Origin: a virus
Taxonomy: Duplodnaviria > Caudoviricetes
Reading direction: 5' to 3' (one strand)
DNA: 64,000 bases
Virus record (IMG/VR): IMGVR_UViG_3300020190_000004
The position numbers were made by a program, and so were the translations under genes. Of this stretch, positions 3,415 through 62,214 are shown piece by piece (the first letter of the stretch is position 1; every line of letters starts with the position of its first letter). The notes under the pieces are model-generated. The model did not search any database. It was not told the origin of the DNA and worked only from the letters and a program-made list of their open reading frames with translations.

Positions 3415-3636
3415 ATGAATAGAAGAGTATTAAATTTTTCCGACTTTTTGGTAGAAGCTGATGAATTGGAAAAAGATCTTGTTAAGAAGAATCTTCGTGC
3501 TGAAGCTGGCGGTGAACAAGAAGAAGAAAAAGAAGAAGAAATCGACGCAGCAGAAGTTAGCGATGACGACGATGACGACGATGACGACGTCGCATCCGAT
3601 GATTCCGTTGCTTCAGACGGTGGAGCAGATATCTAA
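3415..3636 (+). CDS. Small acidic protein with capsid-targeting-like N-terminus
   Basis: MNRRVLNFSDFLVE; poly-E/D; AATATATA upstream. Confidence 0.6.
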   Translation: MNRRVLNFSDFLVEADELEKDLVKKNLRAEAGGEQEEEKEEEIDAAEVSDDDDDDDDDVASDDSVASDGGADI

Positions 3637-3651
3637 AAAAATTCTAACATA

Positions 3652-3993
3652 ATGAAGCACATACACACATTTGAAAACTTCTTAAATGAAGCCCTGGCTT
3701 TTGATACATCTAAACTAAAGAATATCAACTTTATCCTTCCTCCTTTTGATAAGCCGTACCAAGATGAATTCCAGATCTCCTTTGATAAAGGTGTAGATAA
3801 AGATGCAATTGAAAAAGCAATTAAAAGTGAAAAGGGCGCAGCCCGTGTAAAGTACGAGTGGACTACAGACCCGCACGGCTCGGAAGTTCTACTGCTTAAA
3901 CCTGGAAAAGATAACTCAGGTCTAACTTTCGTTTTCAGCGCAGTCGATGATTTCTATGGTTCACACGGTGCAAGCATGGGATGGGCACTATAA
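3652..3993 (+). CDS. Putative internal head protein
   Basis: N-terminus MKHIHTFENFLNE. Confidence 0.6.
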   Translation: MKHIHTFENFLNEALAFDTSKLKNINFILPPFDKPYQDEFQISFDKGVDKDAIEKAIKSEKGAARVKYEWTTDPHGSEVLLLKPGKDNSGLTFVFSAVDDFYGSHGASMGWAL

Positions 3994-4007
3994 AAAAACA
4001 TAATAAG

Positions 4008-4319
4008 ATGAAACACCTAAAAACCTTTGAAAACTTCCTCAATGAGGCAAACGGCCTTGCATACTGGTCTGACTACGCGGAAGACACTTCTGGACAAGCA
4101 GAAGCCTGGATGAGCGAGCCTTGCACAGATATGTCACACGTTATTAAGTGTGTTGACGATTCTATTGCTGCATGGAACAAAGCAGCAGAAGCAGACGGCG
4201 GGGACCGTGTGTCTAAACCATCAGAAAAACATATCGGTGATTTGGCAATCCGTTATTGGAAACAGTTTAAGACTATTAACGGAAACATCATCACTGCAAT
4301 GATTGCGCAAGAGTCTTGA
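4008..4319 (+). CDS. Putative internal head protein
   Basis: Start re-assigned to the ATG at 4008, MKHLKTFENFLNE. Confidence 0.6.
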   Translation: MKHLKTFENFLNEANGLAYWSDYAEDTSGQAEAWMSEPCTDMSHVIKCVDDSIAAWNKAAEADGGDRVSKPSEKHIGDLAIRYWKQFKTINGNIITAMIAQES

Positions 4320-4344
4320 AGTAGGTACTAAAAAAAGAATTAAT

Positions 4345-4644
4345 ATGAAAAACATTAAAACGTTTGAAGACTTTCTTGGTGATTCTACCAAAACCAATGA
4401 AGAAGCAGAAGGCAAAATGTATAAAGTATCTCTTGATACAATCATAAAGAGCGCTGAAGAAATCAAATCCCTTGTTACCGACGACCAAGATCTTGAGGCC
4501 TGGGTGCAAGACAAGATAACTATCGCTGAACACAACATGGAAGCTATTCTTGGTTATATGAAAGGCGAAGGCGGCAAGAAGAAAATTGAAGTACCAGTTC
4601 AAGGAGATATGAAAACTGGCGGAATGTTAAAGGACGAAAACTAA
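4345..4644 (+). CDS. Putative internal head protein
   Basis: Start re-assigned to 4345, MKNIKTFEDFLGD; AWVQDKITIAEH segment. Confidence 0.6.
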   Translation: MKNIKTFEDFLGDSTKTNEEAEGKMYKVSLDTIIKSAEEIKSLVTDDQDLEAWVQDKITIAEHNMEAILGYMKGEGGKKKIEVPVQGDMKTGGMLKDEN

Positions 4645-5708
4645 TGCACGTTTTACCGTTCGATAAGTTCAGCAAAGAAAAAGGCGTCTTTAAGATAGCT
4701 TTTCTTGGAGACATAATGTGTGAAGACTCCGCACTTATGTCAGTTGTCAATGATGAACCATTCCAATTCATAAAGCCGTTTCTGTATTCCACTGATTATG
4801 TTGTAGGAAATCTTGAAACAACTTTTAGTGGAGAAACGAGCAGTTATCCTAAATTTTCAACGAATGATCTGTTAGCGGATGACCTAAGTAGTTTTGTGAA
4901 TCTTGTGTTTACTGCGAACAACCACTGCTATGATTTTGGAACAAAAGGAGTTGAAAGGACTATTGAAATACTGGATGAATTTGGTATAAATTACGTAGGA
5001 ACTAATCCTTTACCAAAAATTCGCAGAACATTCGATGCTGACTTAAAAGGTCATAAATTATCTTTTCTAAACTATACACAATTTATTAATGAAACGAAGA
5101 AAGACCCAATTTACAAAGGAATTAATACCCCAGAAACACCAACAAACCTCATCAATTTTTACTCTAAAACCCAAGCTCAGGAAACGATTAATCTGGCGAA
5201 GGAGAGATCTGAACTTGTCTTTGTTGGAGTCCATCAATCATCTAGAAAAAGTAATGCAAGAGAACTCGAACGAACAAGCACCAGCGAGCAACGAGAGTTC
5301 TTGGCTTCCGTAAGTAATTTTGGCGCTGACGTAGTTATTGGTGGACATCCGCATTACTTTCAAGGTGCAGAAATTCTTGAAGAGGGAAAGATCATTGTCT
5401 ATTCACTTGGAAATTTCTTTTCTACCATGTGGAACCCTCCTCATTATACTACTAACTGCGGGTGCATTATGATAATGTCTTGTGATGGGTTTTCAAATAT
5501 AAGATATACCTTCTTACCGATAGCAACCGTTAAGAACGAAAGTAATAACCACTACTATGTTATTCCTATCGCTACGCTTGAAGGTGGTAACTATGATTGG
5601 GTTTCTGTTAAACAGCGAGATGAACTTCTTGAAGAACTGGAAAGAATTCGTAAAACTTTAAGAGATTGTTCTCTTATCGAGGAAGAGCTTCCGATCCACT
5701 TTTTCTAA
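4644..5708 (+). CDS. capA: CapA/PGA_cap-family metallophosphatase
   Basis: FLGDIM, GNLET, ANNHCYDFG, GGHPH, YSLGNF motifs. Confidence 0.85.
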   Translation: MHVLPFDKFSKEKGVFKIAFLGDIMCEDSALMSVVNDEPFQFIKPFLYSTDYVVGNLETTFSGETSSYPKFSTNDLLADDLSSFVNLVFTANNHCYDFGTKGVERTIEILDEFGINYVGTNPLPKIRRTFDADLKGHKLSFLNYTQFINETKKDPIYKGINTPETPTNLINFYSKTQAQETINLAKERSELVFVGVHQSSRKSNARELERTSTSEQREFLASVSNFGADVVIGGHPHYFQGAEILEEGKIIVYSLGNFFSTMWNPPHYTTNCGCIMIMSCDGFSNIRYTFLPIATVKNESNNHYYVIPIATLEGGNYDWVSVKQRDELLEELERIRKTLRDCSLIEEELPIHFF

Positions 5709-6131: not shown

Positions 6132-6133
6132 TT

Positions 6134-7557: not shown

Positions 7558-7585
7558 TTTATTTGTTTTAGTATATATTTCATCA

Positions 7586-7915: not shown

Positions 7916-7916
7916 G

Positions 7917-8273: not shown

Positions 8274-8303
8274 AAGTTTGTCGTAACAAACTCCGGTCCT
8301 ACT

Positions 8304-8633
8304 TTATATACTAGATTCAAAAACGATAGAATGTTGATAACTAGGTTTATCTGATGCTACATTGATTGTAACATTCCCTTTATGTTTAAGGATTATTTTA
8401 AGATAATCTACGACTTGCTTAGGTTTTCTAGGAAATCCATTGGCTCCTCTTAATCCAGCACCATACAACCAACTTGGAAGATTGTCTGCCGATATGTTAG
8501 GATCCTTAATGAATTCTTGAATATCTTTATCGGTGTATGTATGTTGTTTATTACCGTAAGTGATAACGGTAATTTTCTTTCCTTCATTTAAATTCTCATT
8601 TAAGAATTCTTCGAAAAGTTTAATGTATGCCAT
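8304..8633 (-). CDS. Putative internal head protein
   Basis: MAYIKLFEEFLNE; GATATATA at 8654-8661. Confidence 0.6.
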   Translation of the reverse strand: MAYIKLFEEFLNENLNEGKKITVITYGNKQHTYTDKDIQEFIKDPNISADNLPSWLYGAGLRGANGFPRKPKQVVDYLKIILKHKGNVTINVASDKPSYQHSIVFESSI

Positions 8634-9589: not shown

Positions 9590-10483
9590 TTAGTAATTTA
9601 TTTTTTTGTAATCTGCAATGTCTTTTAGTTCGGCTGTAGGTAATACTTCAATTTTCTTTAGTATTACGTTTCTTACGTTTGCTAAATCATTAATTTCTTT
9701 TTCTGAAAGACCTGCAATAGTATAAGTTTCGCCAACAGAAAAACCAAGAGTAGAAAGCTTTTTTGCACTGTCGAGAGATTCCCAATACTTGCTATCTAAT
9801 GGCTGATTTGTATTAAATGTTGCAACACAATTATCCCAAAGAGTTTTTGCGTCTATTGGGGAAGTTTTTTCAATTACGCAGCTTTCGCCACTAGTATAAA
9901 CAGCAGCAATTGAATACTTTCCTGACATAGCGTCAGGTGGAGTGTTTTCTTTAAGTTTCTTAAATTGTTCAGGCTTGTCTTTATCCATGGTAGAAGATAA
10001 GCCATTTGAAAAAAGAATACTTAATATCTGATTAATTTTAATTGCAGACATACTTAATACACCAGAAAAACCAGCCTTTTTAGAAGCTTTTACTGATATC
10101 TTTTCATCTCCTTTACTTACGTCAGAAAAAATCGAATCAGCGCCTGCTGCTCCAACAGCCGTAGGATTAGTTTGTTGCCCGCCTAATACTTTTTCAACTA
10201 TATGTTCAGCTATTGTTGAAGTTCTAATTCCACCTACTGCTGTATCTTTAGCGTTTGTTCCAAGATTTGTAACAAACGTATGAAAAAAGTTTGCTTCATT
10301 CAAAAGAGGCCCGTCATCAGCAGCAAACTTCTTATCTTTCAAGATATCACTATAAGAAATTGTTGCCCCAGCCTTAGCACCGCTTGATCCTATATACTGT
10401 GTTAAGAACTGAAAAATGTTTTGTGCATTAACAGATTCATTAACAGATTCATTCAAGAAAGATTCGTAATCTAGAAGACCCAT
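9590..10483 (-). CDS. Putative internal head protein
   Basis: MGLLDYESFLNESVNE. Confidence 0.55.
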   Translation of the reverse strand: MGLLDYESFLNESVNESVNAQNIFQFLTQYIGSSGAKAGATISYSDILKDKKFAADDGPLLNEANFFHTFVTNLGTNAKDTAVGGIRTSTIAEHIVEKVLGGQQTNPTAVGAAGADSIFSDVSKGDEKISVKASKKAGFSGVLSMSAIKINQILSILFSNGLSSTMDKDKPEQFKKLKENTPPDAMSGKYSIAAVYTSGESCVIEKTSPIDAKTLWDNCVATFNTNQPLDSKYWESLDSAKKLSTLGFSVGETYTIAGLSEKEINDLANVRNVILKKIEVLPTAELKDIADYKKINY

Positions 10484-10811: not shown

Positions 10812-11273
10812 TCACTTGTAGTCTGGGGACTTGACTTTCTTGCCTTTATCTGGTCCACCTTCTCGGGGTATCATGCCTTGCGCGATCAATGAGACTCTTA
10901 TACCGAATGGTATGTCTTTACCGTCTTCGTATTCCTTTTGATACTTCTTAAGAGTATCTTCATCATAAGGAGATTCTTTTTCGTCAAGTAAGTCTTCTCG
11001 ACCAAGCTGCTTGTACACCTCTTTACGAACTTTTTCCATTTTCTCTGCGTATTCAGGATCATCATTGCGGTTAAAGACGACCTGCTGTGTAAGACTACCG
11101 CTAATCTTTTTAAGATCTTTTTTACGAGTCTTAATTAGCCAAGCAGCAAGATCCTCAATGCCTAAATCTCTAAAACGTCCTTCTGCATCAGGTGCATCGC
11201 TATCTTTCCATTCAGGGGCGCCTGCAGGTTTCTTTTCATACAGCCACTGTTCAAAAAGTTTTAAGTGTTTCAT
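10812..11273 (-). CDS. Putative internal head protein
   Basis: MKHLKLFEQWLYE. Confidence 0.6.
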   Translation of the reverse strand: MKHLKLFEQWLYEKKPAGAPEWKDSDAPDAEGRFRDLGIEDLAAWLIKTRKKDLKKISGSLTQQVVFNRNDDPEYAEKMEKVRKEVYKQLGREDLLDEKESPYDEDTLKKYQKEYEDGKDIPFGIRVSLIAQGMIPREGGPDKGKKVKSPDYK

Positions 11274-11291: not shown

Positions 11292-12098
11292 TTACAATTC
11301 TTTGTTTACGTCGGTGCTGTATGGTTTTGTCAGATCAATCTCACCATTAGCTAACATTCGTTTTACTTTCTCAACTTCGTCCGGCCCAATTACAGGCATT
11401 TCTACTCGTGCTGGGGCCCCTGGCATGATTTGCTTAGGCAACGCGTCAGCGTTTTTCATCATAATCTCTTTACCCTTTTCGTAGTCCCCACCTGCTCCTG
11501 GCATATTACTCAAGCTTTCTTTAACTTGCTCAGGTGTAATAGGAAACTTTCCTTGAATTCCGTTCTCTAAAAAGTTATCCAAAAGATTTCCAATGTTTCT
11601 TCCGGTAAAATCTTTAATGTCTCCGTCTCCGTAGTTACCACCGCGATTAAACATACCAACGGTAATTGTGTTTAATGCAGATACTAAGGATACTCCAGGT
11701 AAGTCAATTTGTGTTGCTTCAACTTTTCCGCTTGGATCGCAAAGAAATGTAGCAGCCCAACGATGATGACCATCCATAATAAAATTGTCTTTAGAAACGA
11801 TTGAACCTAAATCACCACCAATTTTTGCAGGTTTTGTGTTTAGCATTGTTCCAATAGCCATTCCAATAGCCTTTTCCGCGATAATCTCTGTTTGGGCAGC
11901 TTGAAGATTTTTAACAGGAACGCTTACTTTCTTCCCAGCAACTGCATCATCTCTCTTATCACCGTCTTTACCACCTCTGCCAATTGAGGCATCAGCAGCT
12001 TTCTTGTTAACTTTACTTAAAGGAATAACATCACCTCTTCCATGAATCTCCATCGAATCTTCTAGGATGTAACTTTCAAATGTTTTAACGTATTTCAT
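11292..12098 (-). CDS. ParB/Srx-like domain protein with capsid-targeting-like N-terminus
   Basis: IVSKDNFIMDGHHRWAA; N-terminus MKYVKTFESYILE. Confidence 0.65.
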   Translation of the reverse strand: MKYVKTFESYILEDSMEIHGRGDVIPLSKVNKKAADASIGRGGKDGDKRDDAVAGKKVSVPVKNLQAAQTEIIAEKAIGMAIGTMLNTKPAKIGGDLGSIVSKDNFIMDGHHRWAATFLCDPSGKVEATQIDLPGVSLVSALNTITVGMFNRGGNYGDGDIKDFTGRNIGNLLDNFLENGIQGKFPITPEQVKESLSNMPGAGGDYEKGKEIMMKNADALPKQIMPGAPARVEMPVIGPDEVEKVKRMLANGEIDLTKPYSTDVNKEL

Positions 12099-12147: not shown

Positions 12148-12972
12148 TCATTTAAGTAAACTCCAGTACTCGTTAAAGTGTTTAATTCTATCGTCAAGGC
12201 CGTTGGTTCCACCATTCACACGCTTTGTAACAGCGGTGATATCTGCTACTGTTGCACCTCTATCACAAATAGACCAAAGTTTATTGTTGTTAAAGAAAAA
12301 GGCAGCAGAAGCAAGCGGGTATTTTGTTGCTACCAAATCAGGATTAGAAACACAATCTTCTCCGATGAATTTTGTAAAGGACTCGTAATTGCTTTTACCA
12401 GTCAGTTGTATATAACCTCTACCGCGAAACTTATACCCGTCTCGTGATTTTTCATCGCCATTTCCCATTCTGTTGGCATAAACTCGTGAAGCTATCTTCT
12501 CAGGTTGTTTTGCGTATAAGTCAGCAAGGTTTCCCGGGAAGTACTTGCCAAAAGTTGCTTGTAAACCTTTAGAAGAATAGTTTAAGTTTTCACTAGTTGC
12601 CTTAAAGTTTCCACTTTCATGAGCGCATTGTGACAAGAAGTGCGCAAGACGTAAATTAGTAGTAATTCCAAATTTAGCAGCAGTTTCAGGAATTTGCGCA
12701 AGAACCGCATCAGATATGTGACCTTTGAGTTCATTAATCTTTAGACCAGTTGATTCAGTAGATGTAAATGGCGGCAATTCCGGTGTACCAAACATTAACT
12801 TCCAACTGACATTGCCTGATGTAATTATTCCGTCTGGTGTTAAGCCATTTTTCTTTTGCCAAGCAATAACCGCTGTTTCAGTTTTTGGTCCAAACGAACC
12901 GTCTGCGGTTAAACCAAGTTTTTCTTGTAAGAGTTTAACATCGCCTCCTGTAGATCCTTTCTTAATTAACAT
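12148..12972 (-). CDS. Endolysin: peptidoglycan-binding domain plus GH19 catalytic domain
   Basis: GSTGGDVKLLQEKL...FGPKTETAVIAWQ...LTPDG; RLAHFLSQCAHES, ENLNYS, FRGRGYIQLTGKSNY. Confidence 0.9.
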   Translation of the reverse strand: MLIKKGSTGGDVKLLQEKLGLTADGSFGPKTETAVIAWQKKNGLTPDGIITSGNVSWKLMFGTPELPPFTSTESTGLKINELKGHISDAVLAQIPETAAKFGITTNLRLAHFLSQCAHESGNFKATSENLNYSSKGLQATFGKYFPGNLADLYAKQPEKIASRVYANRMGNGDEKSRDGYKFRGRGYIQLTGKSNYESFTKFIGEDCVSNPDLVATKYPLASAAFFFNNNKLWSICDRGATVADITAVTKRVNGGTNGLDDRIKHFNEYWSLLK

Positions 12973-14075: not shown

Positions 14076-14267
14076 TTAATACCTTTGGACAGTAGAACGA
14101 TTGATTTGATCACTGCCGTCTTTCTCTTGGTCGTATTCTTTGCCAGGTTCATTTGTGTCTATGGAAAAGACTTCTTTTCCATGTGCGTACTTTTTGCCTT
14201 TTTTCATAACATGCTTGTCATGCAAGTCACCTATGAATTCTTCAAATGTTTTTATAGGTTTTTTCAT
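14076..14267 (-). CDS. Small putative internal head protein
   Basis: MKKPIKTFEEFIGD. Confidence 0.55.
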   Translation of the reverse strand: MKKPIKTFEEFIGDLHDKHVMKKGKKYAHGKEVFSIDTNEPGKEYDQEKDGSDQINRSTVQRY

Positions 14268-14455
14268 ATTCCTCCAAACGGATAAGCAGCAGTAGCTGTC
14301 TCTTCATCGTCACCGTAGTAAGTAGGATTTTGCGTATCAGGGTCTAAGAACAGCTCGTCACCGTCTTTCTCTTCTTCGCGATCAGCGAGTTTTCTGAGTT
14401 TTCTTGTCTCCAAGTCGCCGATAAAATCTTCAAACGTAGGTACTCGTTTTTTCAT
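14264..14455 (-). CDS. Small putative internal head protein
   Basis: MKKRVPTFEDFIGD; GATATATA at 14460-14467. Confidence 0.55.
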   Translation of the reverse strand: MKKRVPTFEDFIGDLETRKLRKLADREEEKDGDELFLDPDTQNPTYYGDDEETATAAYPFGGI

Positions 14456-40818: not shown

Positions 40819-41250
40819 TCATTTATCTGGGTGATTTTCCACCCAAAATCCCCACTCGCGTTCAGCAATTATCATCGCCTCAAGAGGGGTTATTCCAGGT
40901 ATATGCATAGCCAGTTCAATGCTTGAAGAAACTAAATCAACCAGGCTATCGTGTCTGCTAGCGTTGCGTAGCATATCACCCATTAAGATTTTTTGGTTCT
41001 CTAAAGATTCAGGGTGATACAGTATATCTAAATTGCCCCAGGTTCTTTTGATTTCTTCTATGTTGCTTTCAGTATCTTGTATTAAGGCATACTCATTAGC
41101 TGGAAAAGAAAGATGTAGAGGGTCTTCTATGTCTTCTTTTGAGTGAGAATACTCAACAGGCGCAGGCAGAATGATCCCTTTTTGTAAACGATTCACCCAG
41201 ACGAAGAATTGGTCAAAATCCTTCTTGCTGATGTAAAGGCTAACTTTCAT
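40819..41250 (-). CDS. Hypothetical protein
   Basis: 143-aa ORF. Confidence 0.5.
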   Translation of the reverse strand: MKVSLYISKKDFDQFFVWVNRLQKGIILPAPVEYSHSKEDIEDPLHLSFPANEYALIQDTESNIEEIKRTWGNLDILYHPESLENQKILMGDMLRNASRHDSLVDLVSSSIELAMHIPGITPLEAMIIAEREWGFWVENHPDK

Positions 41251-41270
41251 AAAAGAGGCTTTACCAGTGA

Positions 41271-41555
41271 TTACTTCATATATTCGTTACACTGTGACTG
41301 TAACTTTTCCATCATCTCTTTTATCATTCCTCCACAATCTTTCATGTAGTTTTCAGCTGTCATTTCTGTCTCATCTTCATGGCAAGCTTTCATTTCAGAA
41401 CACATTGCTTCGCACACATCGTTGAGTTTTTCGCACATGCCTTCTGACATGCAAGATGTTTTTCCTTCACCTTCTAATACTTCCTTGAAAGATAGCATAG
41501 ATGTAGATTTAGCAGGTAAGTCGGTTTTCCCGATGAATTCTCCAAAAGTTTTCAT
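41271..41555 (-). CDS. Small Cys/Met-rich putative internal head protein
   Basis: MKTFGEFIGK. Confidence 0.55.
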   Translation of the reverse strand: MKTFGEFIGKTDLPAKSTSMLSFKEVLEGEGKTSCMSEGMCEKLNDVCEAMCSEMKACHEDETEMTAENYMKDCGGMIKEMMEKLQSQCNEYMK

Positions 41556-41558
41556 ATC

Positions 41559-42461
41559 TTATTGTTTTATTTTGTTTATCGTTTTTTGTACCGGGGAAGT
41601 CTCCATAGAAATATCACGAGACTTCCAGTAAGATTTTCCATAAGAGATAAAAATCTCTTCGCCTGGTTCAATATCCCGCAGAGCATAAAAACTGATTGTC
41701 TTTTTCTCTGTATTTATTTTCCAGTCAGCCATAGGTTGATTTCTATGATTATACAAAGAAGCATTCCCAAACGCAATAGCGTATAGAGAGTCGTCAAGTT
41801 TAAACACATAGTCCATAACAACAGTACCCGTTATCTGATCTTTTGGAATTACAAGAAGAGGAGCAACTTCAAAGCACTCACCATTCTTGATGTAATCTAC
41901 ACAGAAAACTCCAGCAGCATCTACACTAGATTTTCCAACGCCTATCTTGTCCCAGACTTTTACCGAAGCCGATCTTCGAAGTTTGCCTTGCGGTTCACTG
42001 ATGTAAACTACTGAATTAACAGGTTCTTTCTTAGTATCACCGCCAAGGGATTCAAACGTCTTTTGAATCCTTCGAGTAATGTTATTCTTTTTTAATACTT
42101 CTTTAACTTGTTCGTCAAATTGACTGAATATCTGTAGCAGATCAGCGTTAAGAGTGTCTTGTCTATCTTCTATGATTTTTTCAATGTTTTTCATAGCAGA
42201 TTGCTTAGATTCTTCAGTAGAATCCGCAAGATCATTTATGATGCTCATCTGCGTTACCAACTCTTCATCAGCGGTAAACTTGTATGTAGTACCGCCTTTC
42301 GAGTAGAGTTCCATTACAACAGAACCTGTTGAGTCAGGGTTTCTTAAGGCATCAAAACTGATTGTTGGCGGCTTAAGACCTCCTCCGGTGAAGTCGAATT
42401 TAATCTCGCCTTCACGCTCAATCAGAGCTTCTGTAAGATATTCATAATAAGTCTTAATCAT
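41559..42461 (-). CDS. SET-domain lysine methyltransferase with capsid-targeting-like N-terminus
   Basis: GVFC..IKNGECFE, ASLYNHRNQP, FYALRDIEPGEEIFISYG; N-terminus MIKTYYEYLTE. Confidence 0.85.
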   Translation of the reverse strand: MIKTYYEYLTEALIEREGEIKFDFTGGGLKPPTISFDALRNPDSTGSVVMELYSKGGTTYKFTADEELVTQMSIINDLADSTEESKQSAMKNIEKIIEDRQDTLNADLLQIFSQFDEQVKEVLKKNNITRRIQKTFESLGGDTKKEPVNSVVYISEPQGKLRRSASVKVWDKIGVGKSSVDAAGVFCVDYIKNGECFEVAPLLVIPKDQITGTVVMDYVFKLDDSLYAIAFGNASLYNHRNQPMADWKINTEKKTISFYALRDIEPGEEIFISYGKSYWKSRDISMETSPVQKTINKIKQ

Positions 42462-44776: not shown

Positions 44777-44830
44777 CTTGTATTTTTAAGATCCTTTGTA
44801 TATATCACCCAAGATGATTGAATGTAAAAC

Positions 44831-44858
44831 AAAAAAAGAGGATCCGAAGATCCTCTTT
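44831..44858 (-). terminator. Terminator after the major capsid gene
   Basis: AAAGAGGATCTTCGGATCCTCTTTTTTT (TTCG loop). Confidence 0.85.
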
Positions 44859-44880
44859 AGTTTTATTCTTATGCTTAAGA

Positions 44881-46806
44881 TTAAGCAATAGAGACAGAGT
44901 TTGGTGCAGACCACCATGCAGCGTTACCGTCCTTAAGGTTAACCAAAAGGGTGAAGTATTGAGTTTCAGGGTGGAAACCAGCTTCAACAAGAGCGTAGCG
45001 AGATTTAACCGCGATTTTAGGGCTCATTGTGCCTTCAGCGATAGTCTGAATAGATTCAGCCATCAAGTAAGGCATGAATTTCAATCCTGGCTCTTCGTCA
45101 GCACCTTTACGTCCTACAAGGATACGAGTATCATCATAGTTCATGTTAGGGTCAACGTAGATAGTCAAACCAGCAAGAGTTCCTAATGGATAAAGAGCTC
45201 CGTTGTTTTGGTTAACTGTGTTAGCCAATGGATAGAAAGTAAATTGAGCACTGTCTTGAAGAGCAGTAGCCATTTGCAAGTTAGTAACTACGAAGTTACC
45301 TGGACCACGACGACCGCGTTGTGCAATCACGTTAGCAGCAGCTAAGATTTTAGATTGTACACGACGTTGGATAGTTCCTTGGTTTTCAAATGCAGCTGAT
45401 GAACCACCGTAGAGTTGGAATGCTGGGACTGTAATTGTCACCAATGCACCAGTTTGTCCGATGAACTGCGCAGATGTAACCGGAGTAGCACCAGTAGATA
45501 ACTGCAAGTTTAAGTTAGTACCTTCAACGCTTGCAAAGTTAGAGTGGTTTTGCCATCCTAATGCGAATGCACGAGAAAGGATGTGCTTGTTGATAGATTG
45601 AGAAATCTCGTTTACAAGAGCGTTTTCCATCATCGATACCACATCGATTCCGTACTGACGGTTCAAGTCTTGAATTTGCTCAGTTGTTACTTGTGCAGCA
45701 ACTTGGAAAGTCTCAGCTTCTACGAACTTAGTGAAAGCTTGTAAGCCCATAGTTCTGTAGTAAGAAGTCTCACCAACACCGCGACGCATTGGCTCGTAAG
45801 CGTAACGACCGTCAGTAGCATTACCAGAGTACTCTTCATCGTCGTTTGGTCCTGAACCAGCGAATCCTTGGATGTGATCTTCAAGACCACGAACCAATTC
45901 AGCATAAAATTGTGTTGCAGCAGCAGCGTTGAAGTTGTTAGCAGCAGCGTTTGCTGGAACTGTAACAGTCCATGCAGTACCGCTACCACCAGCAATCGTT
46001 GCTATCGGGAATACATAAGTTATTGCAGGACTACCAATTACTTCATAGAAATTAACAGTTTGTGTGCTAGCACTTTGAGGAGAAAGGTCTGTTAGGGCGA
46101 CAGTACCTGCCGCTGCAGGGATCGTAACGTTAAGACCTTCACCTACTACGTTAAAGATTGGAAAACCGTCAATGCGAGACAGACCTACGAACTGTACAAG
46201 AATTGCTTCAGCGTTTGCGGCGGAGTTATCTCCCGTTGATAAGAGGTAGTAAGCACCTGTTGTTACAAGTCTCCACAAAGCTGACGTATTCAAGTTAGCG
46301 CCAAAACCTGTTGGGTTCAACTTAAACAATTTGAACTTGTCGGTGAAACGAGAAGAGTTTGCTACAGCAGTACCACCGATAGCAGGGTTTGAGTTACCAA
46401 GACCTGGAGCAAATGGATCACGTCCACCAGCGTATACGTAGTCTAAGTAAGTAAGAACTCCTGAAGGGCCGTTCATAGGAACAACAGATACGATGTCGAA
46501 TCCAATTGTACGAGCGGCAACCTGAATTGCAAGTGGCAACAAAGATGGGAATTTATCGCCTGATCCTTTTGAACCAGCTCCGTAGAAGTTAGCAGCACCA
46601 CCAGCTACAGTAGAAGCTGGAGTAACGTTACCCATTCCTGGAGTGTTGAAAAGAGATGCTTGAGGGTATGAAAAGCCCTCGTTTAATGAGTGGTAGTGAG
46701 CATATTTACTCATCCACTTTAATTTGTTTGATTCATTGATTCCGGTTTTTTCTTCGATAATCGGAGACCATGTTTCAAACACCTGTGCTTCGTTTAAAAG
46801 TTGCAT
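44881..46806 (-). CDS. gp23: Major capsid protein, T4 gp23-like
   Basis: DIVSVVPMNGPSG, VTTEQIQDLNRQYGID, EISQSINKHIL, FMPY...SPKIAVKSRYAL. Confidence 0.9.
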   Translation of the reverse strand: MQLLNEAQVFETWSPIIEEKTGINESNKLKWMSKYAHYHSLNEGFSYPQASLFNTPGMGNVTPASTVAGGAANFYGAGSKGSGDKFPSLLPLAIQVAARTIGFDIVSVVPMNGPSGVLTYLDYVYAGGRDPFAPGLGNSNPAIGGTAVANSSRFTDKFKLFKLNPTGFGANLNTSALWRLVTTGAYYLLSTGDNSAANAEAILVQFVGLSRIDGFPIFNVVGEGLNVTIPAAAGTVALTDLSPQSASTQTVNFYEVIGSPAITYVFPIATIAGGSGTAWTVTVPANAAANNFNAAAATQFYAELVRGLEDHIQGFAGSGPNDDEEYSGNATDGRYAYEPMRRGVGETSYYRTMGLQAFTKFVEAETFQVAAQVTTEQIQDLNRQYGIDVVSMMENALVNEISQSINKHILSRAFALGWQNHSNFASVEGTNLNLQLSTGATPVTSAQFIGQTGALVTITVPAFQLYGGSSAAFENQGTIQRRVQSKILAAANVIAQRGRRGPGNFVVTNLQMATALQDSAQFTFYPLANTVNQNNGALYPLGTLAGLTIYVDPNMNYDDTRILVGRKGADEEPGLKFMPYLMAESIQTIAEGTMSPKIAVKSRYALVEAGFHPETQYFTLLVNLKDGNAAWWSAPNSVSIA

Positions 46807-46838
46807 AGTTTTTTAATAGTTTTTTTGTGTTTGATTTT

Positions 46839-53030: not shown

Positions 53031-55220
53031 TTATCGGAGAACGACTGTATGTCCAACCAGGGTATTCTTTCCGTCATTTCCGTCATTTCCATACTCAATA
53101 ATGTAGCAGTAAATTCCACCTGGGACGATTGCACCTCTGTACGTGCCATCCCACTTGCTCGTGGGATCATAAGACTGCCAAACCAATTCTCCCCAACGAT
53201 TGTACATCTTAAGGTTAAAACGATAGGGGTCAAAGCCGCTAGTGAAGATGGGCTGCCAGGACTGGTTGTGTTCATCTCCATCGGGTGTGAAGGCGTTGGG
53301 TATGTAAATGATTACGCTGGGGCATTCTTCTATAGTGATGGAAGTGGTTACTGTCGGTGAGATACAGGAACCTACTTGATGATAAGCTTCAACGGTGAAA
53401 GTCCCAAATTGATTCCATGAAGTAGAGACAGTGCCTCCTTCTAATTGAATGTTGCCCAGGTCCCAGTATGTAGTACCGGGTAGATTGGAAGTCACGCTGT
53501 ACTGGACAGCAACGCTATCACCCTCACAAACTTCGTAAAATGTGTTAGTTGGAAGCAGAGATAGTATTAGCGGTTCCGGGTTAACTGTAACGTAAGCTGT
53601 GTCGTAGAAAGTACAACCGCTTTGTGAGTACTGGTAAGTCACCTCACTGCTTAACAGACCTTCGTCGGGGCAGAATAAACCGTTGCCAACCCCGTCTCCG
53701 GTAAAGGATCCGCCCGCTGGAACTGCTGTTAGTTGCACACAATCATCGTAAGAGCAAAAAGGTCCGATTGGTGATATCTGCGGAAATAACTGCAAGACTA
53801 CGACGGTTGTAGTTGAAGGAAGACTTGTGCAGTTACTCTGGTTGGTAGCAGTCACTGTGATGCTGTACACCCCAGCAGCGACGCCTGTCCAATCCACGTG
53901 TAGTGTGGGTGTTCCTTGCCCGCTAGTGATGCTTCCGCTTGTTGTCCAGCTGTAGGTATACCCAGAAATGTTATTGACGGTGTAAATTTCGTCAGTGGAA
54001 TTGTAGCAAACGGTATCTTGATAGGATACCAGAGGAGGCGCAACTACAGGAGGGTCAGTAAGTGTGACTGACCCGGCGGTTCCACACCCAGCAGCATCTG
54101 TAAGCGTGTAGCTGTAGGTCCCTGCGCAGAGGCCCGTGATCGATAGCTGGTTTGAAAAACCCCAATCAATCGCAAAGGGTGGGTTTCCACCCACAGGTGA
54201 AACTGTGATAGTTCCATCGCACCCGCTTGTGCAGAGTGGGTTTGTCTGTATCACGTTTGGTGGCGGTAGAACTGGAGGTCCCGGTTGTACAAAAACTGTG
54301 TCAGGCCCGTTAGCTCCTGGGGTAAGGTTGCAAGAATTCCAACCTGCGTTGCAAGAAGGATAGACTAACTGGCATGTGTAGTTTGCGCCAGCGGCTGGAG
54401 GCGTAACTGTGATGCTGTTACCAGTTCCGATTGGTGCAGGATTTCCCACTTGGTACCAGGTAGGAGTTGGAAGCACTGGTTGACCACTGGGGGTCCAACG
54501 TCTCCCGTCGTTGTTAGCAGTCCATTGTGATGAATTTCTCCCGGGAGTTGTGACTGCTTGCGTTGCGTTCGCGTTCTGTATTCCTTGAGTGGCCGTTCCG
54601 TTCGCCCAAGCACAAAACTGCTTGCTCTGAATGTGCACCTCTATGACGTTAGTAGACTCATACAGAACTATGTGAAAAGTCCCATTAACCGCAGTGCATG
54701 AGAAAAAAGGAACGCTGATCCAGCTAACCACCAGTTTGCGGCAAGGAGCAGTTCCTTGAACCTGATATCTTATCTGTCCACCAATTCCCGGGTGCCAATC
54801 TTGCCAAGCACCCATCACCGAGTTAGCTGGTGTTCCGGCTGAGGGTATCGGCGCTGAAGTGTAGGTAACAGGTTGGTTGGGTGAGAAGGATATCCAACCG
54901 TTGGAACCCACGTAGAACTGCGTGTAAGTATTTCCGTAGAAGCAGAAAGTAAAGCCGATGTTGAAGGGTCCTTGCTGCGAGTCATCCGACATCTGTAAAA
55001 GGTTGCCTGTGTTAGTTTGATTGACAAAGGGTATCTGTGTTACGCCGTAAGCGGTTGTTTGGTTAGGGTTACTTCCAGCTGCACACTGTGAAAAATCTGC
55101 CACCAGGGTAGCGGTATTCACTCCACATGGCAGGTATTGATCTGGCCCTAAAGCTGGACAGTATTGAGAATGCGCTGCCAGGGCAAGCAGCGTGTAAAGT
55201 AACAGGATTGCTTTTTTCAT
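53031..55220 (-). CDS. Secreted SprB-repeat/Ig-like protein with T9SS type-B (gliding-motility-associated) C-terminal domain
   Basis: Signal peptide; SprB-like repeat (GLCAGTYSYTLTDAAGC); IYIPNAFTPDGD...YNRWGELV...WDGTYRG...GIYCY. Confidence 0.85.
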   Translation of the reverse strand: MKKAILLLYTLLALAAHSQYCPALGPDQYLPCGVNTATLVADFSQCAAGSNPNQTTAYGVTQIPFVNQTNTGNLLQMSDDSQQGPFNIGFTFCFYGNTYTQFYVGSNGWISFSPNQPVTYTSAPIPSAGTPANSVMGAWQDWHPGIGGQIRYQVQGTAPCRKLVVSWISVPFFSCTAVNGTFHIVLYESTNVIEVHIQSKQFCAWANGTATQGIQNANATQAVTTPGRNSSQWTANNDGRRWTPSGQPVLPTPTWYQVGNPAPIGTGNSITVTPPAAGANYTCQLVYPSCNAGWNSCNLTPGANGPDTVFVQPGPPVLPPPNVIQTNPLCTSGCDGTITVSPVGGNPPFAIDWGFSNQLSITGLCAGTYSYTLTDAAGCGTAGSVTLTDPPVVAPPLVSYQDTVCYNSTDEIYTVNNISGYTYSWTTSGSITSGQGTPTLHVDWTGVAAGVYSITVTATNQSNCTSLPSTTTVVVLQLFPQISPIGPFCSYDDCVQLTAVPAGGSFTGDGVGNGLFCPDEGLLSSEVTYQYSQSGCTFYDTAYVTVNPEPLILSLLPTNTFYEVCEGDSVAVQYSVTSNLPGTTYWDLGNIQLEGGTVSTSWNQFGTFTVEAYHQVGSCISPTVTTSITIEECPSVIIYIPNAFTPDGDEHNQSWQPIFTSGFDPYRFNLKMYNRWGELVWQSYDPTSKWDGTYRGAIVPGGIYCYIIEYGNDGNDGKNTLVGHTVVLR

Positions 55221-55221
55221 G

Positions 55222-58084: not shown

Positions 58085-58089
58085 ATTTG

Positions 58090-58490: not shown

Positions 58491-58492
58491 TT

Positions 58493-59072: not shown

Positions 59073-59104
59073 AATTTTTATATACCGTGGGTGAGAAATA
59101 GTTT

Positions 59105-59551
59105 TTAGATAGCAGGTGGTTTCTCTTTTCTTTCCTTTTTCATTTGAGCAGTCTGCTGTTTGGATTGATCTAACTTCTGTTTCATCATTACTAGTTTTTG
59201 TTCCATAGCGGCAATTTGTTGCTCCATCTGCTCTTCAGCTGCCCGATTTTGGTATATCTTCTTTGACATCGGGTCTTTTGCTTTAGCTGCTTTATCTTTA
59301 AAGTTTTTAGATTTTTCAACAGATTCTTTTGATTTATCGACCTTTGATTTAATTTTTTCTCCGTAATTAGCAAGCTTATCTTTAAATGATGCTATCTTTG
59401 CTGTTAATTTAGCAATAGCTGCTCCAACCTCGTTAATATCTTGATCGTTATACATATCTATAACGGATTCATCTGTAGGGTAAAACTTATCTACCTCTCC
59501 ACTAATGAATTCTTCGTATAGTAGTATTTTAGATTTTGTATTCATTAACAC
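59105..59551 (-). CDS. Coiled-coil putative internal head protein
   Basis: KILLYEEFISGE near the N-terminus. Confidence 0.55.
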   Translation of the reverse strand: MLMNTKSKILLYEEFISGEVDKFYPTDESVIDMYNDQDINEVGAAIAKLTAKIASFKDKLANYGEKIKSKVDKSKESVEKSKNFKDKAAKAKDPMSKKIYQNRAAEEQMEQQIAAMEQKLVMMKQKLDQSKQQTAQMKKERKEKPPAI

Positions 59552-60045
59552 CCGGGCTGAGCGGTATCAGACATTTCCAAATCTTGAGCATGACAACGAT
59601 ATTGCTTGCTTGTCTGGCCAACTCCGGTAGTAGAACCGGCAACTTCCCAACGAATAGTATTATCTTCAAATGCAATAATTTTTCCTATCATGCCGTAAGA
59701 TTCTTTCATAGGGTTGACGCATCTAACAAATTGTCCTATCTGAAAGCGAGCATTGCTTTGTCTCTGATTTTGAAAAATTTCAAAGTTAGGAACAAGCCAG
59801 TTACGATTGGAATAATCACCCGAAGGTCTCATCCAAGAATCGTCTTGTTGTCCGCGCTCGTGCATTTTTAATTGTTTTGTTTTACTGTCTCCATCACCAG
59901 AGTCATGCGCAATTGTTGAAAAAGACCCTATTGCGCCAGAGGTAACATTACCCATACCCGGAGTATTAAATGTATCAGCTGATACCAAGTCTGGTGTATA
60001 CATTTCATTTAAGAAATCGTCGTACTGTAAAATGTGATTTTTCAT
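59545..60045 (-). CDS. Putative internal head protein with C-terminal SH3/KOW-like segment
   Basis: Start re-assigned to MKNHILQYDDFLNE; FQIGQFVRC..P...YGMIGKIIAF. Confidence 0.55.
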   Translation of the reverse strand: MKNHILQYDDFLNEMYTPDLVSADTFNTPGMGNVTSGAIGSFSTIAHDSGDGDSKTKQLKMHERGQQDDSWMRPSGDYSNRNWLVPNFEIFQNQRQSNARFQIGQFVRCVNPMKESYGMIGKIIAFEDNTIRWEVAGSTTGVGQTSKQYRCHAQDLEMSDTAQPGC

Positions 60046-60082
60046 CTTATTTAGTTTCTTCTTTTGTTTCTTCTGAAAACTT

Positions 60083-60679
60083 TTAGTATTTTGCTGCAGA
60101 ATCTTCAACAGAATCCACATCTTTTAATTTTTTAGAATCAGCAACTGCATTAGTTTTAGTTTTCATTCTAGTGTATAAATTTAGAGTACCAATCGTAGCA
60201 GTTGGAAACTGTGATTTAAGAGAATCAAAATCACCCTGAGACATATTCTTAAATGCAGCATACATAGTATTAGAACCAAATATTGATTTCTCGCTCATCC
60301 AAGCAGATCCTTTTGGTAAACTTGTTACAAATGAAAATAGTTCAGAACCTTGGTTTAGCGGTACCGTGATAACAGTTACCATATCACCAGGCTTAACTCC
60401 TAAGAACTGGTCCATTTCTGGAATTTCACTCGCCGATGTAGTTACTTCTTCTAAAATACATACTTTGAAACCAGCAGTTTCCCATGTTTCTAATGCGTAA
60501 ACTCCATTGATGTCTAACCTGGTAAAGGCATACTTGGCAACCATGGCTTTGTACTTTTCTTTTAACTTATACATATTTAATTTTCCATAAAGTGCTTTAG
60601 CTACTTTATCATATGAGATCTTACCTTCAGTTAGATATTCCTCATTCACAAATTGTTCAAATAGTTTAATGTGTTTCAT
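60083..60679 (-). CDS. Putative internal head protein
   Basis: MKHIKLFEQFVNE. Confidence 0.6.
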   Translation of the reverse strand: MKHIKLFEQFVNEEYLTEGKISYDKVAKALYGKLNMYKLKEKYKAMVAKYAFTRLDINGVYALETWETAGFKVCILEEVTTSASEIPEMDQFLGVKPGDMVTVITVPLNQGSELFSFVTSLPKGSAWMSEKSIFGSNTMYAAFKNMSQGDFDSLKSQFPTATIGTLNLYTRMKTKTNAVADSKKLKDVDSVEDSAAKY

Positions 60680-60682
60680 ATC

Positions 60683-61009
60683 TTATTTAGTTTCTTCTTT
60701 TGATTCTTCTGGCTTTTCTTCTGGCTTTTCTTCTGGCTTTTCTTCATCAACAAGTAGTAATTCCCAAACTTGTTTTTTTCCTGGTAGAGTTAACATACCA
60801 ACCTCGGTTTCACCGATAGAAGCTTGTTTACTAGCGATTGCATTATATGTAGAGAGAACAGCGGTATACTTTTTGCCGTCAATTTCCATTTTCTTAAGAG
60901 TTCCTTCGCTGGTATCAGCAGCTTCTTCGGGTGGTTTAACTGTACCTTTTTCTTTGCCTTCAGGCTCGGCCTCGTTCATAGAACAGAATTGTGTAAATGA
61001 CTTAAACAT
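60683..61009 (-). CDS. Putative internal head protein
   Basis: Start re-assigned to MFKSFTQFCSMNE; EKPE repeats. Confidence 0.55.
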   Translation of the reverse strand: MFKSFTQFCSMNEAEPEGKEKGTVKPPEEAADTSEGTLKKMEIDGKKYTAVLSTYNAIASKQASIGETEVGMLTLPGKKQVWELLLVDEEKPEEKPEEKPEESKEETK

Positions 61010-61010
61010 A

Positions 61011-61427
61011 TTACATTCGTTTATCACTTGTAAAGGATTTGTCAAGTTTATCCAACATTTCCTTTAATCGTGTTATTTTATCAACCATTTCTTGGTCACC
61101 TCTTTCTAGGTAATCTTGTTGTGCATACATCAAATCATTTACACAATTGTGTATCTGCACTCGGTCTTGGTCTTCTATTGCTTTTAATATCTTTTCACCG
61201 TATTTTTCTTTAATCTCTGGCAACTTATTGAGAATATCTTCAGCTGTATCCTCTTTCTTATCCATCATCTTCTCGTGTTTCTTGGCAGCAGCTTTTTCTT
61301 TTGCTATAGCTTCCTTCTTCTTTTTCTCAAGAGGGTCTTCTTTGGGCGCTTCTCCACCGCCCGTAAGTGCTGCAAGAGGGTCTTCTTCATTAAGAAACTG
61401 CTCAAAAAGTTTAACGTGTCTTTTCAT
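61011..61427 (-). CDS. Putative internal head protein
   Basis: MKRHVKLFEQFLNE. Confidence 0.6.
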   Translation of the reverse strand: MKRHVKLFEQFLNEEDPLAALTGGGEAPKEDPLEKKKKEAIAKEKAAAKKHEKMMDKKEDTAEDILNKLPEIKEKYGEKILKAIEDQDRVQIHNCVNDLMYAQQDYLERGDQEMVDKITRLKEMLDKLDKSFTSDKRM

Positions 61428-61924
61428 TAGATTCCTGCTGTTTTTCTTGAGTCAGAAATTTGATCCAAGATTAATTTTGTCCAATCTTTAGTAGCTTTGG
61501 TAATGTCTGCCTTGGTTTTAATGCCAAACCTGGGATAACTACGATTACCGCTTCTCATTTGCAATTCAACTCCTTCGATGTAAGCGCCTTTGCCGTCCTC
61601 AAAGCTATCTTGAAAGTAAGAACTAGGCTGTAAGTAAATGTATCCATTAGAACTTATCCAATTACTGATAAACTCTTCTTGTGGTGTCATTTGACGTTTT
61701 TTCCAGAGATCACGATGATCAGCTGTTATTTCTAGTTCGTAACCCTGATTGTAAGGTGTTACGGTAGTCTTAAACGAAGCAATAAAACCAGCTTTCATCA
61801 AGTCGTTAAGAAACTTATCAATTTCTTTTTGCACTATAAAGATTGCTGCTTTGCAGTCTCCCTGTGCTTTAATTAGTTCATTAGACTCGTTAATGAAATT
61901 TTCAAATAGCTTTACATATTTCAT
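61427..61924 (-). CDS. Putative internal head protein
   Basis: MKYVKLFENFINE. Confidence 0.6.
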   Translation of the reverse strand: MKYVKLFENFINESNELIKAQGDCKAAIFIVQKEIDKFLNDLMKAGFIASFKTTVTPYNQGYELEITADHRDLWKKRQMTPQEEFISNWISSNGYIYLQPSSYFQDSFEDGKGAYIEGVELQMRSGNRSYPRFGIKTKADITKATKDWTKLILDQISDSRKTAGI

Positions 61925-61926
61925 AT

Positions 61927-62214
61927 CTAAACTTTAATTTGTAGGTCGCCAATAATTACTCGCTGAATGCCCTTGTATGCCTTTTTAATCGCAGGTTTCT
62001 CGCGATTAATACTTGCAATAACTGAACCTGCGTCCATAGCACTAATGTTTGTTGGCTGCTCAATGATTAAGTCTTTATTCTTATCATCATATGTGACATC
62101 GGTAAAGACACCGCTACCTTTAGGAAGTTTAAGAATTTTTTCAAGTCCTTCAACTTCTTTGCTCACAGGTGCGCCTTCCCAGATAAAAGCTTCGTATGTC
62201 TTAACCCAGTTCAT
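61927..62214 (-). CDS. Putative internal head protein
   Basis: Start re-assigned to MNWVKTYEAFIWE; GATATATA at 62229. Confidence 0.6.
   Translation of the reverse strand: MNWVKTYEAFIWEGAPVSKEVEGLEKILKLPKGSGVFTDVTYDDKNKDLIIEQPTNISAMDAGSVIASINREKPAIKKAYKGIQRVIIGDLQIKV

Follow-up and report, generated by a model that had tools for sequence, protein, structure and literature searches.

A leader resembling the T4 capsid-targeting sequence on unrelated proteins of an uncultivated huge freshwater phage

Since the 1990s, the capsid-targeting sequence (CTS) of phage T4 has figured as a curiosity found on three internal proteins (IPs) and as a means of loading foreign proteins into T4. Encapsulins follow a comparable logic, as unrelated cargo enzymes are directed into an HK97-fold shell by a short terminal peptide that can be transferred between proteins; however, their peptide is C-terminal, binds the shell directly and is left uncleaved, and neither a scaffold nor a protease nor DNA takes part. 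Here we analyse a 64,000-nucleotide stretch of DNA (the window) of the virus record IMGVR_UViG_3300020190_000004 (Duplodnaviria; Caudoviricetes), in which a short N-terminal peptide of the T4 type, the leader or tag, begins a series of otherwise unrelated open reading frames (ORFs). The CTS of T4 has the sequence MKTYQEFIAE (PMC8442874). Its targeting depends on residues 4 and 7 (Tyr, Phe) and its processing on residues 8 and 10 (Ile, Glu); with Asp at position 10, loading still takes place but cleavage does not (PMC9026906). CTS-bearing internal-protein genes of other T-even phages lie in variable loci (PMC9026906, section 3.1), and propeptide-processed head and ejection proteins have been described for phiKZ, 201phi2-1 and SPN3US (PMC5694885, PMC7411985, PMC10052503). 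The T4-type CTS logic is known, and what is new here is the far larger tagged set in uncultivated huge freshwater phages; our literature search turned up neither these motifs nor any connection between capsid targeting and huge phages. By analogy with T4, we consider it probable that the shared peptide represents a capsid-targeting propeptide system of T4 type, acting on a much larger and fast-changing set of cargo proteins.

For comparison, two relatives were fetched in full, G1 (238 kb, major capsid protein 67% identical to that of the window) and G2 (218 kb, 55-56%), and the T4 record was checked, in which IPII and IPIII start with MKTYQEFIAE, gp23 has the cut site FGSFLTE↓A (the arrow marks the cut), and gp21 starts with LLIE↓T. 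The leader of the window shares its skeleton with the two IPs and with the gp23 site, which bears out the original prediction of a CTS-like peptide: an N-terminal Met-Lys leader of 10-14 residues contains two aromatic residues three positions apart, followed by an aliphatic residue, any residue and Glu. It stands in front of unrelated protein bodies, a gp21-family protease and a gp23-family capsid protein are encoded in the same genome, and the capsid protein has a candidate cut site of the same skeleton. The most conserved leader columns, namely the aromatic residues at -6 and -3, the aliphatic residue at -2 and Glu at 0, each have their counterpart in one of the four positions mapped in T4, and in G1 the orthologue of ORF 10812-11273 starts with MKSFQEWLSE, which has both the 10-residue length and the pattern of T4. 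There are also differences. The 64-kb window contains 18-23 tagged genes, compared with three IPs and a few other processed head proteins in T4; the leader is usually three residues longer and favours Phe-Glu-x-Phe-Leu-Asn-Glu; and the proteins that carry it include enzymes. Protease and scaffold seem to be one polypeptide here, with repeats that have the tag skeleton, whereas T4 has a separate scaffold, gp22, in which [LI]-A-E sites are numerous and an aromatic repeat is absent. The T4 system is known from experiment, and the present one is predicted from sequence.

In T-even phages as well as here, variable and poorly conserved genes are united by a CTS-like leader alone and are read as host-range or anti-defence cargo, and the fact that only seven of 18 tagged ORFs have a homologue in the relatives fits this picture of low conservation. 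However, the enterobacterial T4 relatives have a handful of such genes per genome, and the distant freshwater huge-phage clade has dozens. The likeness to the giant phages lies in large heads with about 50 protein species, many of which are internal and ejected; these phages process after Glu by a T4-related prohead protease that is itself C-terminally self-cut. Unlike the phage described here, they use the cut motif [SAG]-x-E, most of their propeptides are long (often more than 100 residues), only eight of the approximately 50 head proteins of SPN3US are processed, and they have no short universal tag common to dozens of unrelated proteins.

The leader and the ORFs that carry it

All 23 start sites at which the leader had been claimed were translated. 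A solid leader is present in 18 ORFs, either as M-K-x-[IV]-K-x-[FY]-E-x-[FWY]-[LIV]-x-E (14 canonical leaders) or as a variant that ends in F-[IL]-G-[DK] (four ORFs), and all leaders occupy the extreme N-terminus with 10-14 residues, within the CTS length range of 10-19 residues. Three further leaders are degenerate and two match only loosely. The original prediction of more than 20 ORFs was thus slightly generous, as 18 cases are solid and another five doubtful, which gives 23 at most. About one in five genes of the window carries the tag. The canonical leaders end with the cleavage motif [LIV]-x-E, and the four variants end with Gly-Asp or Gly-Lys and are not of the cleavable type.

In all 15 strict matches, the first aromatic residue lies 5-7 residues past the start Met, and a six-frame scan with [FY]E.[FWY][LIV].E gave 10 matches, 10 of which lie 5-7 residues past the start Met of an ORF. 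When the more general skeleton [FYW]xx[FYW][LIV]xE was counted in the 103 called ORFs of the window (20,154 residues), 24 matches were found where about 4.2 were expected overall: 14 are N-terminal (0.085 expected), six of the 10 others fall in a single protein, the protease-scaffold described below, and four lie elsewhere. Outside the N-termini and this one head protein, the skeleton is thus no more frequent than the background. The bodies behind the leaders are unrelated, as had been predicted, because an all-against-all BLASTP comparison after removal of the first 20 residues gave no match better than E = 0.02. The conservation acts on the peptide and not on the DNA, since synonymous codons vary freely at the conserved residues: Leu at -2 is encoded by five codons of both families, Phe by TTT and TTC, and Glu by GAA and GAG. 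The upstream DNA varies as well, with an own promoter element in front of some tagged genes and a directly abutting preceding gene in others.

Such considerations argue against a nucleic-acid or translation-initiation feature, for instance an A-rich unstructured start for Bacteroidota ribosomes or a recombination cassette, an explanation to which we give next to no credence: the leaders do begin with ATG AAA and are A/T-rich, and Bacteroidota, the inferred hosts, initiate translation without Shine-Dalgarno pairing, but synonymous codons from both Leu families are used at the conserved position, the motif survives with residue-conservative changes down to 34% body identity, the peptide skeleton recurs inside the scaffold, and the DNA upstream differs between tagged genes.

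The ORFs are as follows, with protein length in amino acids.

Canonical leaders (14):
3415-3636 (+): tagged ORF, 73 amino acids, leader MNRRVLNFSDFLVE, very acidic body (net -22), AATATATA 28 nucleotides upstream
3652-3993 (+): tagged ORF, 113 amino acids, leader MKHIHTFENFLNE
4008-4319 (+): tagged ORF, 103 amino acids counted from the leader Met, leader MKHLKTFENFLNE
8304-8633 (-): tagged ORF, 109 amino acids, leader MAYIKLFEEFLNE, GATATATA 28 nucleotides upstream
9590-10483 (-): tagged ORF, 297 amino acids, leader MGLLDYESFLNE, no Pfam family
10812-11273 (-): tagged ORF, 153 amino acids, leader MKHLKLFEQWLYE, with the G1 orthologue named above
11292-12098 (-): tagged ORF, 268 amino acids, leader MKYVKTFESYILE, ParB/Srx-like body with DGHHRWAA
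41559-42461 (-): tagged SET-domain protein, 300 amino acids, leader MIKTYYEYLTE, two genes downstream of the capsid gene
49411-50157 (-): tagged LicD-family protein, 248 amino acids, leader MHNIKNYTQWLNE, GATATATA 30 nucleotides upstream
59545-60045 (-): tagged ORF, 166 amino acids, leader MKNHILQYDDFLNE
60083-60679 (-): tagged ORF, 198 amino acids, leader MKHIKLFEQFVNE
61011-61427 (-): tagged ORF, 138 amino acids, leader MKRHVKLFEQFLNE, top matrix score, G1 orthologue tagged too
61427-61924 (-): tagged ORF, 165 amino acids, leader MKYVKLFENFINE
61927-62214 (-): tagged ORF, 95 amino acids, leader MNWVKTYEAFIWE; GATATATA at 62229-62236 heads the gene row 62214-59105

Variant leaders (four):
4345-4644 (+): tagged ORF, 99 amino acids, leader MKNIKTFEDFLGD with Asp in place of the final Glu; may be targeted yet uncut
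14076-14267 (-): tagged ORF, 63 amino acids, leader MKKPIKTFEEFIGD
14264-14455 (-): tagged ORF, 63 amino acids, leader MKKRVPTFEDFIGD, GATATATA 12 nucleotides upstream, heads an operon
41271-41555 (-): tagged ORF, 94 amino acids, short leader MKTFGEFIGK

Degenerate leaders (three):
52091-52300 (-): 69 amino acids, MKTPDFKTFENLNE, second aromatic residue missing, AATATATA 12 nucleotides upstream
59105-59545 (-): 146 amino acids, ...LLYEEFISGE, one-residue insertion
60683-61009 (-): 108 amino acids, weak leader MFKSFTQFCSMNE, two-residue insertion

Loose matches (two):
4644-5708 (+): PGA_cap (CapA) enzyme, 354 amino acids, loose leader MHVLPFDKFSKE only, tag doubtful
42461-44770 (-): acidic protein, 769 amino acids, net -73, just downstream of the capsid gene, own GATATATA

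The start claimed at 59551 does have a FEEFISGE leader with an insertion, but the ATG at 59545 is likelier to be the true start; an FEEFISG-like variant is also present in G1. The N-terminus of the 769-residue protein (771 residues from the claimed start at 44776, listed here from 44770), MKFADYVAN, keeps the two aromatic residues and the aliphatic one and lacks the Glu, and its positional counterpart in G1 starts with MKFKDYLER; an uncleaved tag is possible in this case, but doubtful.

The tagged bodies are mostly small and acidic to neutral. Four of the 23 had been named as enzymes of the SET, LicD, ParB-like and CapA types, and these assignments fared differently. ORF 41559-42461 has a good leader and a SET domain by profile match (PF00856, E = 2.1e-12, 47.8 bits against a cut-off of 22.4, residues 184-275). 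ORF 49411-50157 matches LicD weakly, at 23.0 bits against a cut-off of 22.6 and over residues 50-87 only; the assignment nevertheless stands, as PF04991 is present in the precomputed annotation of 13 of 16 homologues (window protein excluded), and, by eye, leaders are kept in P0002-P0016. For ORF 11292-12098, a ParB-like nature is plausible, not established: the leader is good, the motif IMDGHHRWAA is invariant in 44 homologues, and all 25 of the top 25 fold matches of its AlphaFold2 model (predicted local distance difference test score, pLDDT, 91) are ParB/Srx proteins, but the support is moderate, with Z-scores of 3.5-4.9 over approximately 70-105 aligned residues, PDB profile matches to 1VK1 and 5X0J at E = 0.05 only, and no Pfam match. 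In ORF 4644-5708 the PGA_cap domain is certain (2e-44), but its tag is loose, as FDKFSKE has Ser at the aliphatic position of the skeleton and the G1 orthologue, with YDSFIKR, lacks the final Glu. No Pfam or PHROG family was found for the remaining tagged bodies; ORF 9590-10483 gave a language-model match to restriction-endonuclease-like clusters (0.89-0.90), which is a weak lead only.

Next to the LicD gene, an untagged gene for a class I S-adenosylmethionine-dependent methyltransferase (48773-49414, -) overlaps the stop of the tagged gene, and the methyltransferase and LicD genes also lie directly upstream of the protease gene in G1; the two may form a functional pair of which only one partner is tagged. 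An untagged endolysin-like gene (12148-12972, -; PG_binding_1 and glycoside hydrolase 19) lies in the same late operon as the tagged ORFs that start at 14455, 14267, 12098 and 11273.

Head genes, relatives and promoters

The window is part of a large phage genome and is mostly minus-strand coding. Its head genes contain the following features.

44881-46806 (-): major capsid protein, gp23 family, 641 amino acids, PF07068 3e-42
46839-48698 (-): prohead protease (S77/gp21 family) with scaffold-like tail, 619 residues, immediately upstream of the capsid gene, GATATATA 40 nucleotides upstream
47484-47909 (-): 14-residue repeat array, about 10 repeats at exact 14-residue spacing, protease residues 264-405
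47265-47285 (-): conserved leader-like site FTQFLGE, protease residues 472-478
48666-48683 (-): conserved candidate self-cleavage site LLMILE↓R, counterpart of T4 gp21 LLIE↓T
48198-48212 (-): conserved candidate self-cleavage site KVNE↓S, just past the protease domain
46938-46952 (-): conserved candidate self-cleavage site GINE↓S, near the C-terminus of the protein

The closest GenBank relatives of the capsid protein are those of an uncultured 462-kb phage (44% identity) and of the Lak megaphages (39%). Its N-terminus aligns with the propeptide of T4 gp23, as its homologue, and at residue 43 (nucleotides 46678-46689) contains an invariant candidate cut site, HSLNE↓G. The gp21-like protease that had been predicted for the window is well supported: the family membership lies in residues ~17-152, within the first ~220 residues, with PF03420 at 43.3 bits (cut-off 27), phrog_207 at 1.4e-40 and the T4 gp21 structure PDB 5JBL at 1.3e-6, and its catalytic His and Ser motifs, GELDHP and ISSRAAG, align with GELNHP and GVSSRGLG of T4; both segments, with H72 and S127/S128, are invariant among 13 homologues. 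Conserved [LIV]-N-E-type sites, in the capsid protein as well as in the protease, are positioned where T4 head proteins are cut. Those of the protease suggest that the enzyme may free itself from its own scaffold tail.

The repeats of this tail have the consensus xY[SA]E[YH][LIV]AEKxxxx[IV], and their skeleton is that of the leaders and of the T4 CTS. They are kept in all 18 matching homologues, down to 34% identity, and the copy number differs among relatives. In an AlphaFold2 model, which is indicative only at a mean pLDDT of 56, a beta-rich N-terminal domain is followed by a single continuous helix (residues 250-384, 135 residues) and a helical C-terminal domain. We infer from the repeat array that the C-terminal tail is the scaffold of this phage and would be chopped at each repeat. 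When a matrix was built from the scaffold repeats, the score of the T4 CTS exceeded its 99.9th percentile. The likeness of leaders and repeats is one of the skeleton level only; it leads to the hypothesis that leaders dock to the scaffold tail by resembling one repeat unit.

In IMG/VR, 18 loci have a capsid protein with 49-80% identity to that of the window, and at several of them other ORFs also begin with a leader of this type. The original prediction had called for a scan of relatives with a profile of the N-termini, and a matrix trained on the window leaders alone found 24 tagged ORFs in G1 and 24 in G2, with odds ratios for N-terminal versus internal positions of 79-236 (P between 3e-23 and 1e-10 across genomes and score cut-offs). 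Among the tagged proteins of these relatives are DUF285 repeat proteins, an ATP-grasp enzyme and a hydrolase of the UPF0227 type. In G1, the region at 130-198 kb is collinear with the window, and the share of tagged ORFs with a homologue in G1 or G2 given above (7/18, to be read with the caution that the untagged comparison set is not clean, as it contains spurious small ORFs) is low, and suggests a fast turnover of tagged genes in islands between conserved genes. Window DNA was found in at least 20 lake-water metagenome runs, and one protein of the window on a 238-kb contig. An exact 40-mer had no match in viral_contigs, and megablast against GenBank phages gave none either, so that tagged ORFs were counted genome-wide in the two relatives.

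Two families show how leader and body behave over larger distances. The LicD orthologues with 34-70% identity all start, by eye, with a leader, for example MNLIKNYKSWLNE or MHDYYEFLNE, and the most distant homologue (26% identity) has none. ORF 11292-12098 has a family of over 170 members in phages. Of the 100 homologues that could be aligned at the conserved body start, 92 have [LIVMF]-x-E at most five residues upstream of it, and the leaders fall in lineage-specific classes, for example MKQTNKKRRLFE, MSKLNLRKTIQTVIAE and MEKILQLIDEKLQALRE, and MKYVKTFESYLLE in the clade of the window. One body with interchangeable protease-motif leaders would be as expected of an address that co-evolves with the head machinery of its lineage, and is an indirect hint that a leader may by itself suffice to load a foreign protein. 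It also bears on the idea that tagged genes are diverged paralogues that retained an ancestral N-terminus, which we regard as barely credible: tagged genes do occur in tandem rows (62214-59105; 3415-4644), and G1 has true paralogue rows (a DUF285 set; two ORFs with identical leaders), but the bodies belong to different Pfam families and folds (SET, LicD, ParB/Srx), and different leaders by lineage on one body family mean that tag and body are separable. Paralogy of the bodies was tried as an explanation and is ruled out by the all-against-all comparison, with nothing better than E = 0.02.

One of the G1 rows is an observation in its own right. In L031:14546-17442 (-), four genes in a row have common MKN[LF]K[ST]F[ED]xFLNE leaders, and the two that were scanned both have DUF285/BspA-like repeats by Pfam; this looks like a diversifying array of tagged repeat proteins.

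Several tagged genes had been said to follow promoters, and this is the case. Shuffled sequences contain 5.1 +/- 2.3 copies of the element [AG]ATATATA and the window 17, of which 15 are located 12-70 nucleotides upstream of a start on the coding strand. The element is found directly upstream of the starts at 3415, 8633, 14455, 44776, 50157, 52300 and 62214 and of the protease gene, and thereby heads the protease-capsid operon, six tagged genes with a solid or degenerate leader and the gene of the acidic protein of 769 residues. An early-looking promoter, TGTTAATAAC ... TTTATACYATAA, precedes three untagged operons and drives no tagged gene (0 of 3 copies). When the nearest upstream promoter was taken, 11 tagged genes were assigned to the late and none to the early type, compared with 34 late and 17 early among untagged genes (P = 0.026); this is suggestive of an expression of tagged genes late, together with the head genes. 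The early motif of the window genome was not found in G1 or G2, so that the comparison applies to the window only. Three freshwater metatranscriptomes and one doubtful run were compared with positions 41000-50500 and showed nothing over tagged genes; their contigs covered only the capsid and protease genes of relatives, at 90-99% identity, and such contigs cannot show timing.

The early-type module itself, upstream of 52843, 36820 and 17255 (-), comprises TGTTAATAAC, TTTG(C/T)A-like boxes, TTTATAC[CT]ATAA and a conserved AATTAAATAAT leader.

Proposed capsid targeting and its alternatives

Our reading is that of a CTS system. The modular tag, its likeness to T4, the protease and the conservation in relatives partly support the claim that this phage packages a large modular set of proteins, enzymes included, and the part that concerns packaging comes from the analogy with T4; on this basis, the phage probably packs an unusually large protein set. 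Scaffold binding, cleavage, virion residence and injection of the tagged proteins would follow from the same analogy.

The following sequence of events can be envisaged. Tagged proteins would be made late, together with the head genes. Their leader would form a short helix, of which the aromatic residues at -6 and -3 dock to the assembling scaffold core, and this core would be built from the C-terminal tail of the protease-scaffold with its approximately 10 aromatic-x-x-aromatic-aliphatic-x-Glu repeats. After closure of the shell, the gp21-family protease would cut past the Glu of [LIV]-x-E, and leaders, scaffold repeats and capsid propeptide would all be substrates of this same protease, so that the cuts dismantle the scaffold and leave the freed cargo inside the head. 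As Asp at position 10 of the T4 CTS blocks cleavage but not loading, and as the variant leaders end in Asp or Lys, the Gly-Asp and Gly-Lys leaders would be loaded but not cut. The predicted cargo of the window would comprise 18-23 mostly small, acidic-to-neutral proteins together with a SET methyltransferase, a LicD-family transferase and a ParB/Srx-like protein, and it would leave the head with the DNA at infection.

A more far-reaching version is put forward only tentatively. The leader could be a free-standing unit of the scaffold repeat that mimics the scaffold, zips into its coiled coil and is released by the very cut that dismantles the scaffold. Such a mechanism could permit plug-and-play loading of 50 or more fast-changing proteins, about one-fifth of the genes, including the SET methyltransferase and the ParB/Srx-like protein, which might act on the host at the time of DNA entry.

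Several points weigh against the proposed CTS system and its scaffold docking. The phage is uncultivated, and virion residence, cleavage and injection rest on the T4 analogy. T4 internal proteins are basic, whereas most tagged bodies here are acidic or neutral. Leaders and repeats differ in their preferences, with Phe, Glu at -5 and Asn at -1 in the leaders, and Tyr, Glu at -4 and Ala at -1 in the repeats; only five of 18 leaders score above the 99.9th percentile of the repeat-derived matrix, and the rank test of leaders with this matrix (P ~1e-13) is partly circular, as both sets were chosen by a related pattern. A complex prediction with the full-length protease-scaffold (13-row alignment) and the first 45 residues of ORF 61011-61427 gave a score of 0.00, which we list here although it is no evidence either way. 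The "late" label of the promoter derives from the genes that it precedes, and the P value of its association with tagged genes is modest. Lastly, within 20 kb on either side of the capsid gene, neither Lak-A2 (code 15) nor LR756500 has an N-terminal skeleton match, although the protease of LR756500 retains a few repeat-like sites; judged by these genomes, the tag in its present form is restricted to the closer clade, with a capsid identity of at least about 55%.

The alternative that survives best accepts that the tag loads proteins, but sees in them mostly core or filler material, like gp67, gp68 and the internal peptides of T4, which is degraded, expelled or inert, and not injected effectors. 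Many tagged bodies are indeed small (49-150 amino acids), acidic and of low complexity, such as ORF 3415-3636, with a net charge of -22, or the K/E-rich ORF 61011-61427; the T4 core proteins gp67 and gp68 are small and acidic as well, and most tagged bodies have no recognisable domain. However, folded enzymes and binding modules would seem pointless as filler, and these are present both in the window (SET, LicD, ParB/Srx-like) and in the relatives (DUF285, ATP-grasp, UPF0227 hydrolase). The presence of homologues in G1 or G2 for only 7 of 18 tagged ORFs suits host-facing roles better than assembly parts, with the reservation that the untagged set is not clean. We consider it unlikely that filler accounts for most of the tagged proteins.

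Considerably less probable is that the leader is a docking helix for a partner outside the capsid, for instance a phage chaperone, a tail or baseplate compartment, or a membrane or export device. A short helical tag could bind many things, and the complex prediction gave no answer on contact with the scaffold. But a non-capsid partner would leave the constant terminal [LIV]-x-Glu unexplained, which is the specificity of a gp21-type protease, and likewise the occurrence of the same skeleton in the protease-scaffold and in the T4 gp23 cut site and the one-to-one match to the T4 CTS; furthermore, the leader has no hydrophobic stretch as is typical of export signals.

If the proposed CTS system is real, it represents T4 targeting logic at a different scale in a clade of uncultivated huge freshwater phages, with two dozen tags per related genome and a quick turnover. 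The injected proteome of uncultivated phages would then be predictable from sequence alone, and dozens of candidates could be named for proteins that counter defence or take over the host ahead of phage gene expression. That the skeleton of the tag is repeated in the scaffold suggests what the tag may bind, a question that is still open for T4, and the leaders could serve as new orthogonal tags for the loading of proteins into phage capsids.

Other features of the window

A phage transfer-messenger RNA (tmRNA) gene lies at 51442-51911 (-; Rfam RF00023, 77 bits; ARAGORN tag peptide AQTKESCWWSLTYP), in a 1.1-kb ORF-free gap between the LicD/head region and a polX-like gene. At 51025-51107 (-), ARAGORN detected a tRNA-like gene with a two-base "anticodon" (gg), possibly an unusual tRNA or only part of one, and a tRNA-type T-arm, GGTTCGATTCC, is found just upstream of ORF 50508-50987.

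The gene at 53031-55220 (-) encodes a protein of 729 residues that starts with a signal-like segment and contains SprB and PKD repeats as well as a sorting domain for type IX secretion (CHU_C); the gene lies in the only GC-rich stretch of the window (0.44 compared with ~0.38). It looks host-derived and would point to a Bacteroidota host with type IX secretion.

A TROVE/Ro60-like gene (phrog_850, 1.4e-49) is located at 33956-35581 (-), and a stretch without a convincing ORF, headed by a AATATATA element at 37280-37287, at 36897-37307. Two tandem, untagged paralogues of about 130 amino acids (MGTLKTTLKVESTD... and MATLKSTLKIESTD...) lie at 39930-40328 and 40360-40752 (-) behind GATATATA; they are also conserved in G1 (182632-183009) and are probably small virion proteins.

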